The notes below the pieces were generated by a model. The model was not told the DNA's origin and did not search any database. It saw nothing but the letters and a program-made list of their open reading frames with translations. Of a DNA stretch of 64,000 nucleotides, positions 47,684 through 52,726 are shown piece by piece. How positions within the stretch are numbered: the first letter of the stretch is position 1; every line of letters starts with the position of its first letter. The DNA is from a virus. The stretch spans positions 88,666 through 152,665 of IMG/VR virus record IMGVR_UViG_3300028283_000002, one strand, 5' to 3'. A program made the position numbers and the translations under genes.

Positions 47684-47896
47684 ATGGAAAACTTAACTAC
47701 ATTCGAAGAATTTTCCTTTTTCAGAAAGAAAGAGTTAACTCCAGATGAGGAATATAGAAGACAGTCTAAAGAAGCTGAAAGAAATAGACCCAGAAATCCT
47801 GATACGAAATATTCTAAATTTTGGGGTATTTACGATGACGGTATGGAGGAAGAGGAAGAAGAGGAAGAAGAACAAATTGAATACGATACACCATGA
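47684..47896 (+). CDS. acidic small protein, paralog of 47030-47284
   Basis: MENLTTFEEF..KKELTPDEEY. Confidence 0.7.
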   Translation: MENLTTFEEFSFFRKKELTPDEEYRRQSKEAERNRPRNPDTKYSKFWGIYDDGMEEEEEEEEEQIEYDTP

Positions 47897-48756
47897 ACAA
47901 CGAAATAGCATTTTTTGATTTAGATGGAACCTTGTGGAATATCAAGAATGACGACATATGGATAATAGATAAAGAAAAACCATTTAGACCAGTTATCATT
48001 CTTAATCATCTTGATTTTTCCTTGATCAAAGCAGGAAGATATAGAAAAGATGAATTACCATTAGATTACAACGGTCAAATATATTACATTAGTAAAGATT
48101 TATTTGAAAAAATTAAAAAGAAATCTGGAAGTGAAAATATCGAAAGATTCGGTATTTCTTTTATACCTATGCTTAGAAAAGAAATTCTCGATAAAAGAGA
48201 AGTTGATATACTTAGCCATAACATTGAGCATCTTAGGTATAATAAGTTCGTAGATATTGGTTTACTTACAGCTAGATCAAATCAAAGGAACCATTCAGAT
48301 CTTGTTAATAAACTTAGATTAGAATTAAAGAAAATAGGAATAGAAATAAGTAAAATATTCTTTGTTGGTAGTGGAGTTCATAGTGGAGTAGATCCTAAAT
48401 TGAAAAGTTTCGTTCTACTGGAACATCTTTTAGGACTTAAAATTAAAGATGGTAGATTTATATCTGTTAAACAAGACTGGTATAAGAAAGTTAGTTTCTA
48501 CGACGACGATAGTAAAAACATTGATTACGCCAACGATATTCAAGATTGTTTTGAAGAACTTTTAAGAAAGACAGACGACGAACTTTTTAGAATTATAATA
48601 GATAGAATTGAGACATTCGAATTAACACTTGATACTTATCTTGTAAGTGATAATGAAGTAAATAGATTTAAGAAGAGTTCTGTAACGTTAAGACCACCTT
48701 TAAGATTTCCTATAAAAGAAAGTCTAAAAAATTATAATGATTTTTTAAGGAAATGA
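47893..48756 (+). CDS. HAD-superfamily hydrolase
   Basis: FFDLDGTLW (motif I), LLTAR (motif II), FYDDD (motif IV). Confidence 0.75.
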   Translation: MNNEIAFFDLDGTLWNIKNDDIWIIDKEKPFRPVIILNHLDFSLIKAGRYRKDELPLDYNGQIYYISKDLFEKIKKKSGSENIERFGISFIPMLRKEILDKREVDILSHNIEHLRYNKFVDIGLLTARSNQRNHSDLVNKLRLELKKIGIEISKIFFVGSGVHSGVDPKLKSFVLLEHLLGLKIKDGRFISVKQDWYKKVSFYDDDSKNIDYANDIQDCFEELLRKTDDELFRIIIDRIETFELTLDTYLVSDNEVNRFKKSSVTLRPPLRFPIKESLKNYNDFLRK

Positions 48757-49295
48757 TAACTAAATTCAAATTAAAAAACTGCATTCTTTTATGTAAAAAT
48801 TGTCATAATAAATTACATTATAGTATTAATTCTAATGTAGATAAAAAAGATAAAAAGATATTTTTAGAATATAAAGGTGTAAATGGTTGTATAATATGTG
48901 GATATAACGAATGTGTAGCATCTTTAGAATTTCATCATAAAGACCCAAAAGATAAATTATTTCTTATATCAAATAAAAGTCATTACTATAAATCAATAGA
49001 AAGTTTAAAAATTGAAATAGAAAAAGAAATAAATAAATGTGATGTTTTATGTTCAAATTGTCATGCTGAATCTCACCTCAACGATGGATTTTATGCATCA
49101 CACGAAGAAGAAATAATAAAGAAATCTAAAAATATGATTGAAAAAATGATGAAAATAGATAGAGATATCATTTTATATCTTTTCAAGAATGGTTATAGAC
49201 AAATTGATATATCGAATGAATTGGGGATTAAAAGAGGAATAGTATCATCTATTTTCAAAGAATTAGGGCTTCCTAAAAAAACCATTGAACATTGA
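48753..49295 (+). CDS. HNH endonuclease with C-terminal HTH, N-terminally truncated
   Basis: CIICGY..LEFHH..CDVLCSNCH; the ORF opens with the tail of a second HNH repeat (LCKNCH). Confidence 0.75.
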   Translation: MITKFKLKNCILLCKNCHNKLHYSINSNVDKKDKKIFLEYKGVNGCIICGYNECVASLEFHHKDPKDKLFLISNKSHYYKSIESLKIEIEKEINKCDVLCSNCHAESHLNDGFYASHEEEIIKKSKNMIEKMMKIDRDIILYLFKNGYRQIDISNELGIKRGIVSSIFKELGLPKKTIEH

Positions 49296-49323
49296 AAAAC
49301 CAGACTAAAAAGTCTGGTTTTTC
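49294..49323. terminator. bidirectional intrinsic terminator
   Basis: AAAAACCAGACT-AAAA-AGTCTGGTTTTT perfect stem. Confidence 0.85.
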
Positions 49324-49324
49324 A

Positions 49325-50010
49325 CACTTACCTCATTACCTGTCTTCCTCCAGGATTGACTTTCGTCTTATCGGATTCATATTTGGACTTTTATTTTGTG
49401 AATGTTACCATTCACGAGATAAGTTTTTTGCTCTTAAACTAAATGGTGGTTAAAACTCTTGAAAATTTAATCCCTTTTCGGCTTTCTGAAGGCCTACTTC
49501 GGTTTGGATTATCTGTCCCATTGCTGGGTCAAACCATTTAAAGATTGAAACTTTGAAGAAGTAAAGATGAGTTCAGAATACTCAAAATTATTTTTTCAAA
49601 CTTTCAAAGAACTTTTAAAAAACTAAAAGAACTGGTCATTATCTGCGCAATATCCTCTCTAGGAGGAATAGACAGGATGAGCCTTGGATATATCTTTCAG
49701 CGTTTCAAAGAACTATAAGAACTAAGTCGTAATAGCTGTTACATTTCACAGTAACAAATTAAGTGCGAAGGGCCTCCACCTTTCGGTCATACACAGTCTC
49801 ACTTTCCTCACACACTATTACAGCCGACTGAACCTAAACTTGTACTCAGTCCTATAAGAGCTTAAAAATGGAAGCGAGTGCCCTACTCGCAAATGAGGGA
49901 AAATAAAGCCTAGTATATAGGGAATTTAAGCCTCATATAACTATCCATATCATTACCCAATTAAGGGCTACTTGGAATCGTTTACCATTTATATTCAAAG
50001 AACTTGCTTC
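49325..50010 (-). ncRNA. putative large structured non-coding RNA (or cluster of RNAs), family not recognised
   Basis: No ORF; appears GC-richer than flanks; upstream promoter, boxA copies, GNRA hairpins on the minus strand, long-range stems, downstream terminator. Confidence 0.7.
49994..50004 (-). promoter_or_regulatory. boxA-like antitermination element AGTTCTTTGAA (identical copies at 49704-49714 and 49603-49613)
   Basis: Three exact 11-mers matching the rrn boxA variant GTTCTTTGA; the first lies ~15 nt after a promoter. Confidence 0.65.
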
Positions 50011-50021
50011 GAATTCTTATA

Positions 50022-50053
50022 CAAAGATAAGAAGTCTTGTTGAGATAAAAAAA
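50022..50053 (-). promoter_or_regulatory. Bacteroidota sigma-A type promoter (TATCTTTG -7 element)
   Basis: TTTTTTATCTC-spacer-TATCTTTGTAT, repeated at 50174-50205. Confidence 0.65.
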
Positions 50054-50173
50054 TCTTTTGAAAGAATTTTTATCAAATTTTAAAATACCTACTTGTGGGT
50101 TGAATGGTTATCTCGCCTTTCAGTATTCAGTCAGTCTGTGGACTGAAAATTTGATTATCTCATTTTGACTATA

Positions 50174-50205
50174 CAAAGATACGCCACTTTCACGAGATAA
50201 AAAAA
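50174..50205 (-). promoter_or_regulatory. second tandem Bacteroidota-type promoter (TATCTTTG)
   Basis: Same architecture as 50022-50053. Confidence 0.6.
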
Positions 50206-50337
50206 TTATTTGATAAATTTTTTAAAACAACACTAAACAAAGAGCTTTTACTAAATCGTCAGTAATAACAGATTTTATATATTATATATACCTGAGAAAT
50301 TCCTTTGTTTTAAAAAAATTCAAGAAAATATAAAACT

Positions 50338-50505
50338 TTGAAAGACAAACCTTTAGATAAAAAAGAGACTATTTGGCTTTGTCCAGACTGTGATGGGAAA
50401 GGTTATATTGAAAAAGGACAATGTCCATTATGTAAAGGTAAAGGTGAACTTAGATTTACCACTTCCTCTCAAAAGGATTTCGAAGATCCCCAGCCTTCTG
50501 ATTAA
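50338..50505 (+). CDS. small DnaJ-type zinc-finger protein
   Basis: TTG start; CPDCDGKG...CPLCKGKG; 55 aa, below the ORF-track cutoff. Confidence 0.55.
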   Translation: MKDKPLDKKETIWLCPDCDGKGYIEKGQCPLCKGKGELRFTTSSQKDFEDPQPSD

Positions 50506-52726
50506 ATGGTGATAAGAAAGGTATAGGTTTTATATCAGGCTTAACTTTAGGATAAAATCTTTTATACGCTCCACTAAATGATTGAAAATCAACCATTGAT
50601 CCGTCGTCTTTACTACCTAAGAATTTAAGTATAACTTGTTTCTCTTTTTCGGTTATATCGTAATCTGAATAAGTATCTACCATATTTCTGTAATAGTTAT
50701 TATCAAATAAACTACTTAAATTTATAAGAGACATTACACAATCATCGTTGCCTGTTTCTGAACGATAAGTTATATCCCCTCCTGGTGTTTCTTTCTTAGA
50801 GAAAGATTTTAATTCTATGATATTCTTTTCGTTATGAAGAACTAAATTATCTTTCTTAACAGCGTCTTGAAAATCTTTTAAAAGTAATTTCTTATTATAA
50901 CCTATAAGTAATCCTATCTTTGGTTTCTGATCTGTTTCTCTATGTTTATATCTGGCAAATATAGCGTCCATAAAATCATTATTATCATTGAATACGTGGC
51001 GCATGTTATTAACCAAATCGTTACCTAAATTTTTATTCATTTCCACTACTATCTTAACTTTCTCTGGGTCAAAGATTTCAAAAACTAAAAGGTATAATAT
51101 ATGAGCAACTTCATTTATAGAGTAAACGTTATTTCTAAATAAACCTATTTGTTCTAGTTTAAATAAGTCATATTTATTTGAATAAAAGTCTTTCTTTTTT
51201 TCTATGAGTTTTTCGTCCTTCATCATTAATCTAAAGATATTGAATACAGTATAATCTAAACCTAATCCTTCAGCCAAATCTATACCTATCGTGATATAAT
51301 AGTCTTTAGCTTTGGCTAAATCAAATATTTCTGGATGATCTAACATGAAAGTTAGACTGTCGTATGGAAGAGTTAATTTCTTTTCAAAATTTTCTAAATG
51401 AGGAGTTCCAAATTCGTACTGTTCGTTCATGAAACTTTCAAACATAACACTATCGAATAACAATTTATCATCTGTAATGAACTGAATCTCGTACTCCTGA
51501 TTGAACATCGCTTTACCACCAATAAGAGATGTTTGTTCTTCTTGCCAGTTAGTTATTCTTACGACTTCGGGTAAAGGTATGACCTCATTTATTCTTATTG
51601 TTCTAATTTCGTCGATTCTACAATTTTCCCTAACTGTTTTACCATCGTCTTCAAAGAATTTAATGAAATACCAAGTTTCTTGTTCAAGTCTTTTACTATA
51701 CATTTCGTAACCTAGTTCTTGTAATCTATTTAATATTTCATCTTGTGTAACGTTATATTGACGCATTTTATGTTCAAGAAACATAAACTTTGTATCTCTT
51801 CTACCTTTAACTTGATGCCAGTAGACACGCATAGCCTCGTATTTATTCCATCTTGGGTCTTCTTTTGGTCTTTCAGCGTCTACTAATAATTCCCAGAATA
51901 AATTATAACCGTCAGGTGTTGATGTTATAATAATTTTAGAATTTTCTACCTGTACAACAGTAGGTACAACAGCACCGTAGTACTGACGTACAATATTCTC
52001 AGGAACTTTCGCGAACTCATCGAGATACAACAAGTCAATGGTAAAACCGATAGATGGATCTTTAGATCTCGCCTGACTTTGAATTCTACTATTATTATCA
52101 AAGGCTATCTGTTTTTCGTTCCAGTTTGTTACACCTGTCTTTAAGAAGAAAGGTAACAATTTATAAATATCCTTTATCTTTCTGATAATTTCTTTTACTG
52201 TATCACCTTTATTAGCCACGATCATAACACCTTTATCATCATTAAACATCACAAGATGTAGAATAACAATGGATGCTGAAACCGTATTTAAACTTAATAT
52301 ATCGTTTGTATAATAACTATGTTCATTTGAACTAATGGACAGATCGAACATTGAAACATTATGTTTTAATTTTTTGATAGATTTAACTTTAGAAGGGCCT
52401 AGCTTAGTTAGAACGATATCGTTAGTTGTTAGATCTTTAACAAATTTGATCATGTGTCCTTCGCAAAAAATAGTATGTATATCGGCACATTCTAGTTTTA
52501 GTCCATTTTCGAGTTCTAGTTCGTGTATAGCGTATGGTTGAGTAAAATTTATTTCTTCGATTGGAACAAAGCCGTAGTCTGTTTCGACCAATAAATTTTT
52601 AATTGGTAGAATATTGATCACTTTTTTCAAAGGATCATCTTCGTCAAATTTAGTATTTTTATATTCGTATTTTTCAATTAGTTCTATTAACCAGTATATT
52701 ATATTTTTTAAAAAATTTTTAAACAT
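50456..52726 (-). CDS. terL: terminase large subunit, C-terminal part, fused to a split-intein C-fragment
   Basis: LLYLDEFA (Walker B), IIITSTPDG, FNQEY, IGIDLAEG, NDDCVMS; Walker A absent and replaced by a Hint fragment ending ILSLN/T. Confidence 0.9.
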   Translation of the reverse strand: MFKNFLKNIIYWLIELIEKYEYKNTKFDEDDPLKKVINILPIKNLLVETDYGFVPIEEINFTQPYAIHELELENGLKLECADIHTIFCEGHMIKFVKDLTTNDIVLTKLGPSKVKSIKKLKHNVSMFDLSISSNEHSYYTNDILSLNTVSASIVILHLVMFNDDKGVMIVANKGDTVKEIIRKIKDIYKLLPFFLKTGVTNWNEKQIAFDNNSRIQSQARSKDPSIGFTIDLLYLDEFAKVPENIVRQYYGAVVPTVVQVENSKIIITSTPDGYNLFWELLVDAERPKEDPRWNKYEAMRVYWHQVKGRRDTKFMFLEHKMRQYNVTQDEILNRLQELGYEMYSKRLEQETWYFIKFFEDDGKTVRENCRIDEIRTIRINEVIPLPEVVRITNWQEEQTSLIGGKAMFNQEYEIQFITDDKLLFDSVMFESFMNEQYEFGTPHLENFEKKLTLPYDSLTFMLDHPEIFDLAKAKDYYITIGIDLAEGLGLDYTVFNIFRLMMKDEKLIEKKKDFYSNKYDLFKLEQIGLFRNNVYSINEVAHILYLLVFEIFDPEKVKIVVEMNKNLGNDLVNNMRHVFNDNNDFMDAIFARYKHRETDQKPKIGLLIGYNKKLLLKDFQDAVKKDNLVLHNEKNIIELKSFSKKETPGGDITYRSETGNDDCVMSLINLSSLFDNNYYRNMVDTYSDYDITEKEKQVILKFLGSKDDGSMVDFQSFSGAYKRFYPKVKPDIKPIPFLSPFNQKAGDLRNPFERKW
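52286..52726 (-). mobile_element. intein C-fragment (atypically split, long IntC)
   Basis: ELENGLKLECADIH (block B-like), MFDL..SYYTNDILSLN (blocks F/G); no N-terminal Cys/Ser block A. Confidence 0.8.

Follow-up and report, generated by a model that had tools for sequence, protein, structure and literature searches.

The window analysed here is the final 64 kb of a 152,665-bp virus contig from IMG/VR with an estimated completeness of 21%. Downstream of the large terminase gene (50456-52726, minus strand), which forms one flank, it contains a unit (about 49295-50205, minus strand) that probably serves as an operon of stable untranslated phage RNAs, transcribed by the host with Nus-dependent antitermination and laid out like the host ribosomal RNA (rRNA) operon. 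The unit lies within 49296-50455, by far the biggest gap free of open reading frames (ORFs) in the 152-kb contig (1160 nt versus 477 nt for the runner-up). An earlier note on this DNA had described a non-coding transcription unit here, and this description stands; the true end of the gap is 50337 (49296-50337) rather than the terminase stop. Because the upstream 118 nt of the gap hold a zinc-ribbon gene (50338-50505), the non-coding unit extends over about 49295-50337. The statement that it contains no ORF of 60 aa or more also holds: the minus strand of the unit has no ORF of at least 30 aa, and the plus-strand ORFs of 32-53 aa match no Pfam or PHROG family. The nearest GenBank relative is LR756501, an uncultured 735-kb phage with 96% identity across the alignable part of the region and 94% identity in the terminase protein. 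The 5′ 600 nt (49718-50320) are 97.5% identical to LR756501, versus only 88-92% for the flanking protein genes, and the DNA from 49717 to the terminator is unalignable to LR756501 except for the block around the third boxA (boxA3) and the 3′ end. The unit is non-coding and constrained.

Promoters, boxA copies and the likely host

The two near-identical minus-strand promoters described in the earlier note are borne out by a 36-nt pattern, TTTTTTTATCTC-N12-TATCTTTGTATA, which occurs twice (50205-50170 and 50053-50018, 152 nt apart) where 0 copies are expected. Specifically, promoter P1 (50170-50205) consists of the T-tract TTTTTTTATCTC (50205-50194) and a -7 box, TATCTTTG (50181-50174), and P2 (50018-50053) is its duplicate, with the -7 box at 50029-50022. 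Primary-sigma promoters of Bacteroidota have the consensus TTTG at -33 and TAnnTTTG at -7. The -7 box of both P1 and P2 fits TAnnTTTG, host rRNA promoters carry the same box, and the relatives' -7 box varies solely at the "nn" (TATCTTTG, TACTTTTG, TAAATTTG). At -33, in contrast, the phage promoters have a T-tract (TTTTTTTA) where host rRNA promoters have TTGACA. P2 is found in the window, LR756501 and L017; L004, L005, L008, L014 and L044 have one promoter copy, and L017 has three. Similar sites combining a T-tract with TAnnTTTG precede several protein genes of the contig. We infer that P1 and P2 are host-type promoters used by host polymerase. At the other end, the perfect terminator that had been said to close the unit is an intrinsic terminator formed by a two-way hairpin (49295-49322, minus strand), with a 14-bp perfect inverted repeat, a 4-nt loop and flanking A and T runs at 49293-49324. 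It overlaps the stop codon of a convergent HNH gene, and compensatory changes in relatives alter both sides in 8 of the 14 pairs of its stem.

Between these ends, the 11-mer AGTTCTTTGAA, three copies of which had been noticed before, occurs exactly three times in the window, always on the minus strand and against a chance expectation of 0.14; the 152-kb contig holds no copy beyond these three. BoxA1 (50004-49994) lies 25 nt past the -7 box of P2, boxA2 (49714-49704) is replaced by TAGTTCATTGAAA in L017, and the boxA3 core (49613-49603) is embedded in a block, AAAGTTCTTTGAAAGTTTGAAAAAATAATTTTG (49585-49617), that is kept in every variant. All three are on the predicted transcribed strand, within ORF-free DNA, 25-420 nt past the -7 box of P2. 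A degenerate fourth boxA-like word, GCTCTTTGTT (50236-50245, minus strand), is located upstream of P1; L014 reads AAAGTTCTTTGAAT at this position, there ahead of a copy of module B2 (see below).

The boxA3 block, which aligns across relatives as AAAGTTCTTTGAAAG(A/T)(T/A)TGAAAAAATAATTT, links the unit to a specific group of bacteria. The relatives' version, GTTCTTTGAAAGATTGAAA, is identical to the boxA of the Ignavibacteria 16S-23S spacer over 19-24 nt (24/24 in L008), and its core, GTTCTTTGAA, is the boxA that Ignavibacteria rRNA operons carry in leader and spacer. The boxA3 core GTTCTTTGAAAGNNTGAAA occurs in at least 120 metagenome contigs and, among the matches listed, at least 28 lie in rRNA operons, most of them 340-500 nt beyond the 3′ end of 16S and 125-180 nt ahead of the 5′ end of 23S, and three of them 100-154 nt upstream of the 16S start. 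The 24-nt spacer boxA GTTCTTTGAAAGATTGAAAGAGTA is found in 59 species genomes, inside the 16S-23S spacer in 59/59, and the titles of these genomes are almost all Ignavibacteria, Ignavibacteriales, Melioribacter, Stygiobacter or unclassified "Bacteroidetes" bins. By these comparisons, the repeated 11-mer is a genuine rRNA-type boxA, to which NusB-NusE is predicted to bind, and the host is probably a member of the Ignavibacteria. The phage boxA has one difference from the gammaproteobacterial boxA consensus GYTCTTTAANA, with G instead of A at position 8 (PMC5725501).

In host rRNA leaders, a TAnnTTTG box with TTGACA upstream of it occurs twice in tandem at a spacing of about 110 nt, and the pair is followed by a small hairpin and then by the leader boxA GTTCTTTGA(A/T)AGAGTGA. 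Because host leaders show tandem TAnnTTTG promoters and then boxA, the unit has the grammar of its likely host's rRNA operon. The small hairpin of the host sits between P2 and boxA, whereas the phage has a 90-nt RNA (sRNA-A) after P1 and nothing after P2. The boxA block is the sole match between the unit and host rRNA operon DNA, and neither boxB nor boxC is definable in the phage unit. Additionally, genes for NusB, S10 and RNase III are found neither in the contig nor in the 735-kb LR756501, and host factors would therefore be needed.

In LR756501, the same signals accompany transfer RNA (tRNA) genes. This phage has 12 copies of GTTCTTTGAA, two of them in its version of the RNA unit. Four others share the strand of a tRNA array (L208; LR756501 185500-192000; 11-12 tRNAs on this strand) and fall within 3.5 kb, either inside the array or a short way upstream of it. 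In this region, a boxA lies within 5 nt downstream of a P1-type promoter (AATAATTTTTTTA..TAATTTTG) and leads into tRNA-like sequence, another boxA stands immediately before tRNA-Cys, and the tRNA region includes a third P1-like promoter that is 77% identical to P1. Since both promoter and boxA accompany the array, the phage uses these signals for known stable RNAs. The tRNA-like sequence after one promoter and boxA resembles the 5′ half of a tRNA-Leu and has no ARAGORN call.

In the more distant megaphages LR745206, LR756502 and LR756504, GTTCTTTGAA is not enriched. The 635-kb LR745206 (W02) carries two copies at 419806 and 420365 (plus strand), 559 nt apart, and this pair could mark another boxA-led unit. 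Separately, about 22 contigs of 38-47% GC (L029, L030, L042, L043, L048, L049, L063 and about 15 more) carry CTCATTTTAACCGTTCTTTGAAAGTGTGAAAG.. followed by AAGGTTTAGGG, a boxA-like word in a recurrent context, away from the 16S/23S marker sites checked.

Folded modules and their exchange among relatives

Terminase-guided retrieval yielded 14 IMG/VR loci. The syntenic unit lies downstream of the terminase gene in L004/L012, L005/L006, L008, L014, L017, LR756501, L044 and L082; the last two are metagenome contigs, and L082 is 99.9% identical to the window. The covariation counts given below, each based on 5-9 related sequences, should not be read as formal probabilities; controls with slid pairing partners were clearly lower throughout. 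The comparison shows that the unit consists of a row of predicted domains, each with its own closure, namely sRNA-A, B1, B2 and RNA-C, and the expectation that a structured RNA here would covary among homologues is upheld for RNA-C, B2 and B1.

The first domain, sRNA-A (50072-50161, minus strand), is a three-hairpin RNA of about 90 nt with a closing stem between 50155-50146 and 50081-50072, an outer arm GAGAUAA (50161-50155) that pairs with UUAUCUC (50048-50042), and an invariant loop, GGCGAGAUAACC. It is found in 8/8 variants, its hairpin 1 covaries, and minimum-energy folding of the window, L004, L005 and L008, with their different sequences, recovers its A/U-rich closing stem each time. Module B1 (49866-49990, minus strand), which follows boxA1, is closed by AAAUGG (49990-49985) pairing with CCAUUU (49871-49866) and contains the hairpin GCGAG..CUCGC (49890-49874). 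This closing helix had been proposed as a long-range pairing, and the relatives retain it at the same place with other sequences (UAUGGAUAG/CUAUCCAUA, AUAAAUGA/UCAUUUAU and AAAUGAAAG/CUUUCAUUU); the internal hairpins of B1 show compensatory changes as well.

Module B2 (49720-49851, minus strand) combines an outer stem (49851-49844 with 49727-49720), a 4-bp hairpin with the invariant loop UAGGUUCAGUC, and a three-way core with GUGAGGAAAGUGAG and CCUUCGCA, whose helices pair 49822-49814 with 49736-49728. The core is closed by GUAAUAG/CUAUUAC (49821-49815 with 49735-49729), another pairing that had been proposed and that is kept through sequence changes in relatives. The outer stem, too, pairs in every homologue, even though its sequence is wholly different between them. 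B2 may also form a pseudoknot between a loop and an internal stretch (CAGUC with GACUG). The hairpin ACC-GAAA-GGU (49787-49778), also predicted earlier, is present but lies in a variable apical insertion. With the covariance model R1, the window B2 scores 121 bits and nine other loci score 76-111 bits. Among nine distinct B2 sequences, 92.8% of the cells pair and 9/23 pairs have both partners changed; covariation scores 0.321 versus 0.132 ± 0.024 for shuffled alignments (reached in 0/500) and at most 0.097 for slid partners. B2 is single-copy in the genome, where no further copies were found.

The 3′ half of the window's unit is less uniform. A spacer (49614-49703, minus strand) is unalignable to LR756501 and the other relatives and is spanned by the near-identical L082. 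The hairpin GGUUUG..CCCA-GCAA-UGGG..CAAACC (49501-49535, minus strand) is present as the earlier note described it, but it has no counterpart in the aligned relatives and no match elsewhere in IMG/VR; since the aligned relatives lack it and L082, which spans it, is near-identical, it has no comparative support. RNA-C (49327-49492, minus strand), in contrast, has a conserved start, CCUUCAGAAAG (49492-49482), and a closing helix between CUUAUC (49423-49418) and GGUAAG (49332-49327). It includes a hairpin capped by GUAA (49415-49398), a hairpin GAC-GAAA-GUC (49367-49358) and a hairpin CCUG-GAGGAAGA-CAGG (49354-49339). The first two had been picked out before: GUGAAUG-GUAA-CAUUCAC is supported by compensatory changes, and GAC-GAAA-GUC is kept as a hairpin with varying loops. 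The third covaries, reading CCAG..CUGG in L014 and GCUCA..UGAGC in L017. Over RNA-C and the terminator in seven sequences, 15 of 33 pairs are changed on both sides, versus 5.5 ± 1.7 in shuffled alignments (0/500).

One further pairing proposed across modules, between 49681-49662 and 49351-49331, is a real complementarity, with a duplex energy reached by 11/2000 shuffles, but it is unsupported as a conserved pairing. Its 49681-49662 arm has no counterpart in the aligned relatives, and the pairing is absent from the full-length minimum-energy fold. The 49351-49331 arm takes part instead in conserved local helices, namely CCUG..CAGG and part of the RNA-C closing helix.

The relatives align in a conserved order: P1 and sRNA-A; boxA and B1; variable middle modules; boxA3; a GC-richer RNA of 310-340 nt; and RNA-C with the terminator. 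The GC-richer RNA, of about 320 nt, is missing after boxA3 from the window and L082 only and is present in all other variants (L001:3590-3930, minus strand, and likewise in L004, L005, L008, L014, L017 and L044). Of its 87 predicted pairs, 22 are changed on both sides versus 9.9 ± 2.0 in shuffled alignments (0/500), which makes it a candidate for a new large RNA class. The window is a deletion variant that lacks this structured RNA. The middle modules also vary in place and identity. B2 comes after B1 in the window, LR756501 and L017; L014 and L044 have a shorter B2 upstream of P1, behind an extra boxA; and another boxA-led module (GGAAGGGGAAUAGUCUGUGGAUGCUUGAGGAGCCGCAGGGGAAACAGACG...) replaces B2 in L004:8904-9081, L005:5915-6092 and L044:528-705. 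Modules are thus permuted, replaced or deleted among phages with 74-94% identical terminase, and in L010 and L011 (terminase 69% identical) the whole unit is absent. The earlier note had left a choice between one RNA of about 0.7 kb and a processed set of RNAs. Because the modules are independently closed, and shuffled, duplicated or deleted in relatives, the processed set fits better than the single 0.7-kb RNA.

The suggestion that the RNA might form a new class agrees with the outcome of the Rfam searches. At gathering score, Rfam 15 gives 0 matches in the whole window, including GOLLD, ROOL, HEARO, OLE and raiA as well as RNase P, transfer-messenger RNA (tmRNA), signal recognition particle (SRP) RNA, 6S RNA and group I/II introns. 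At E up to 10, only chance-level matches appear on 49000-50600, and nothing beyond chance was found in LR756501 and five relatives including the 320-nt RNA. ARAGORN finds no tRNA or tmRNA in the window, in the scanned syntenic loci (L001-L017) or in the whole contig. Pattern scans of IMG/VR for sRNA-A and RNA-C found this clade only, plus chance matches in unrelated or coding DNA. Three other readings were considered and rejected. Homology of the 320-nt RNA to the 5′ half of GOLLD was dropped when an nhmmer profile gave no match to the GOLLD region of the phage contig L216. A likeness of the 320-nt RNA and of the GAGGAAAGU of B2 to RNase P or tmRNA was a by-eye impression that no model supports. 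A coding reading of a 138-aa antisense ORF in L004 was also abandoned, the ORF having no Pfam or PHROG family and being broken in the close relative L005.

B2 is not confined to this clade. Its core occurs in five further large IMG/VR contigs outside the clade, with model scores of 76-98 bits, each time behind a TAnnTTTG promoter and a boxA-like word. In the 229-kb phage contig L216 (4390-5494, minus strand), promoter, boxA-like word and B2 are followed by a small SRP RNA (RF00169, 47 bits), past which a second promoter and boxA precede GOLLD (RF02032, 186 bits); an array of 13 tRNA genes lies upstream of this stretch. A phage-borne SRP RNA adjoining GOLLD is unusual. In L215 (3511-3867, minus strand) and L219 (8857-9210, plus strand), tmRNA genes lie 0.7-1.6 kb upstream of B2 on the same strand, and tRNA genes lie downstream of B2 in L218 and, past a structured RNA, in L215. 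Because it stands beside tRNA, tmRNA, SRP RNA and GOLLD genes, B2 is a recurrent member of phage stable-RNA loci. The structured RNA after B2 in both L215 and L219 is of no identified family.

Proposed mechanism and competing explanations

We propose that host RNA polymerase would start at P1 and P2 through their Bacteroidota-type -7 box, and that the nascent boxA, identical to the host rRNA boxA, would recruit host NusB/NusE together with other Nus factors. The polymerase would then get through about 0.85 kb of hairpin-rich, untranslated transcript, escaping pausing as well as Rho-dependent or premature termination, and a fresh boxA before successive modules would reload the complex, like the spacer boxA before 23S rRNA. 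As the covariation indicates, sRNA-A, B1, B2 and RNA-C would each fold as a domain closed by its own terminal helix, each module would probably be released as a separate small stable RNA, and transcription would end at the terminator (49322-49295). Our best guess is that the modules are trans-acting stable RNAs or RNA-protein particles in the functional sphere of the tRNA, tmRNA, SRP RNA and GOLLD genes near B2. A wider proposal, which we advance only tentatively and hold to be rather doubtful, is that undescribed stable RNAs (B2, sRNA-A, B1, RNA-C and the 320-nt RNA) make up a cassette system in large phages of Ignavibacteria and of other Bacteroidota, all of them expressed via hijacked host rRNA antitermination, and that at least one is a new functional RNA class that acts on the translation or RNA-processing apparatus of the host.

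Several points weigh against the operon reading. The start sites, processing and abundance of the transcript are all deduced from sequence, and no module has an assignable function. The covariation is based on only 5-9 related sequences, and the closing helices are short, A/U-rich and each of modest significance in duplex tests. Additionally, the -33 region is a T-tract instead of TTGACA, and a phage factor could be involved. Finally, the cargo is dispensable at least in part, because L010 and L011 lack the unit and the window lacks the largest RNA.

A different arrangement of the same material would be a single ornate RNA of about 0.85 kb, working as one molecule in the manner of GOLLD or ROOL, with boxA merely securing its synthesis. 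Structure does run through the whole stretch, which lies between promoters and a single terminator; large RNAs are known from phages (PMC12286853), and L216 has GOLLD behind the same kind of promoter and boxA. Yet every module has its own closing helix, modules are exchanged among phages with 74-94% identical terminase as described above, B2 stands alone in unrelated contexts, the sole proposed module-spanning pairing has no counterpart in aligned relatives, and Rfam offers no match, all of which leaves such a molecule unlikely. Nothing recognisable lies downstream of B2 in the window, where a terminator closes the unit and the next gene is convergent, and a fully covarying outer stem encloses B2 in every homologue, suggesting excision as a discrete RNA. 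Both observations argue against a purely cis-acting role, in which B2 and neighbouring elements would serve as leader structures, modifying polymerase or guiding processing, like HK022 put or the EAR processive anti-termination RNAs. This role, too, is improbable in our estimation, although B2 is the first structured element after promoter and boxA in five other phages, ahead of tRNA, SRP or GOLLD genes.

The boxA copies themselves might be the product, if strong promoters yielded enough of them to titrate host NusB/NusE and stop host rRNA synthesis, the folds serving as stabilisers. Such a Nus-factor sponge would explain why a phage without Nus genes of its own places three to four boxA copies in a 0.7-kb stretch after tandem promoters, but it is not required, and it would starve the phage's own boxA-dependent operons too. 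The folded modules covary and are conserved beyond a stabiliser's need, boxA is placed before modules as in rRNA operons, and the same boxA occurs in the LR756501 tRNA array, where plain anti-termination is the obvious role; we regard a sponge as quite improbable. All repeats being on one strand, and the repeat matching host rRNA boxA over up to 24 nt, we attach very little credence to an element acting at the level of DNA, that is, a replication origin, packaging site or regulatory region by the terminase with the repeats as protein-binding sites. The region is AT-rich and ORF-free, has repeated words and adjoins the terminase gene, as such an element might, but the numerous compensatory changes in base pairs indicate selection at the RNA level, and an essential packaging site or origin is ruled out because L010 and L011 lack the whole region.

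Known systems, significance and flanking genes

The operon of separate RNAs that we favour resembles several known systems in part. Like bacterial rrn operons, the unit has tandem host-type promoters, a boxA shortly past the promoter with further copies ahead of later RNAs, and an untranslated structured transcript in which each RNA is enclosed by a helix from its own flanks. It is unlike them in being phage-borne and in its cargo of small RNAs that are neither rRNA nor tRNA; its promoters differ from host rrn promoters in having the -33 T-tract and not TTGACA, and its lack of a definable boxB or boxC is a further difference. BoxA-mediated expression of untranslated RNAs is known for rRNA, CRISPR arrays and lambda-type phages, and boxA-dependent antitermination of CRISPR arrays was reportedly described by Stringer et al. 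in 2020.

Use of boxA for long arrays (PMC7862264) and the boxA-dependent suhB case (PMC5725501) share with the phage unit a boxA at the start of a long untranslated RNA, where it keeps Rho off, whereas the phage has several boxA copies in one unit, without repeats or spacers. GOLLD and ROOL are large structured phage-borne RNAs (PMC12286853; Rfam RF02032, RF03087) found near tRNA genes. The unit is likewise phage-encoded and highly structured, and in L216 GOLLD has the same kind of promoter and boxA, one gene from a B2 copy; the unit consists, however, of small modules and not of one giant RNA, and no module has an Rfam match. Huge phages carry arrays of tRNA and stable-RNA genes (PMC7162821), with which the unit shares the promoter type and boxA in the LR756501 array, as well as the presence of B2 in such arrays elsewhere, but the unit itself has no tRNA, tmRNA or SRP RNA.

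Three features appear to be new: a modular, cassette-like string of several RNA motifs without known family in a megaphage, a near-exact copy of the Ignavibacteria spacer boxA in a phage, and the B2 motif common to several large phages. A literature search found no paper describing the unit, B2 or the spacer-boxA copy, its coverage being incomplete and absence therefore unproven. If the operon reading is true, the largest known phages keep whole stable-RNA operons, beyond tRNAs, and borrow the expression grammar of host rRNA (promoters, boxA and flanking stems) for them. The 24-nt boxA identity with Ignavibacteria rRNA spacers provides a sequence-based host clue for an uncultured phage of about 700 kb, and B2, RNA-C, B1, sRNA-A and the relatives' 320-nt RNA are well-delimited candidate RNA classes. 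The unit also makes testable whether Nus-dependent antitermination serves the folding and expression of viral non-coding RNA outside lambda-type gene regulation.

On its 3′ side, the unit faces a convergent HNH endonuclease gene (48753-49295, plus strand; PHROG HNH families, E = 1e-21). LR756501 has no HNH gene at this position and carries a different 105-aa ORF instead. In the window, the HNH gene is found together with an RNA unit whose 3′ half is rearranged and has lost the 320-nt RNA, and a homing-endonuclease-linked exchange may lie behind this. In L010 and L011 (8271-8290), a convergent 287-aa ORF comes within 5 nt of the terminase stop; it has the same length as the window ORF at 47893-48756.

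On the 5′ side, the zinc-ribbon gene (50338-50505, plus strand) runs convergently to the terminase gene, the last 50 nt of which it overlaps. It is kept in L001, L004, L005, L008, L014 and L017 and encodes a conserved 55-aa protein (CPDCDGKGY..CPLCKGKGE..SSQKDFEDPQPSD) with two CxxCxGxG-like knuckles, a weak match to DnaJ_CXXCXGXG and the conserved tail SSQKDFEDPQPSD. A near-palindromic sequence, TATATATAATATATA (50290-50276), lies just upstream of this gene and may be its promoter.

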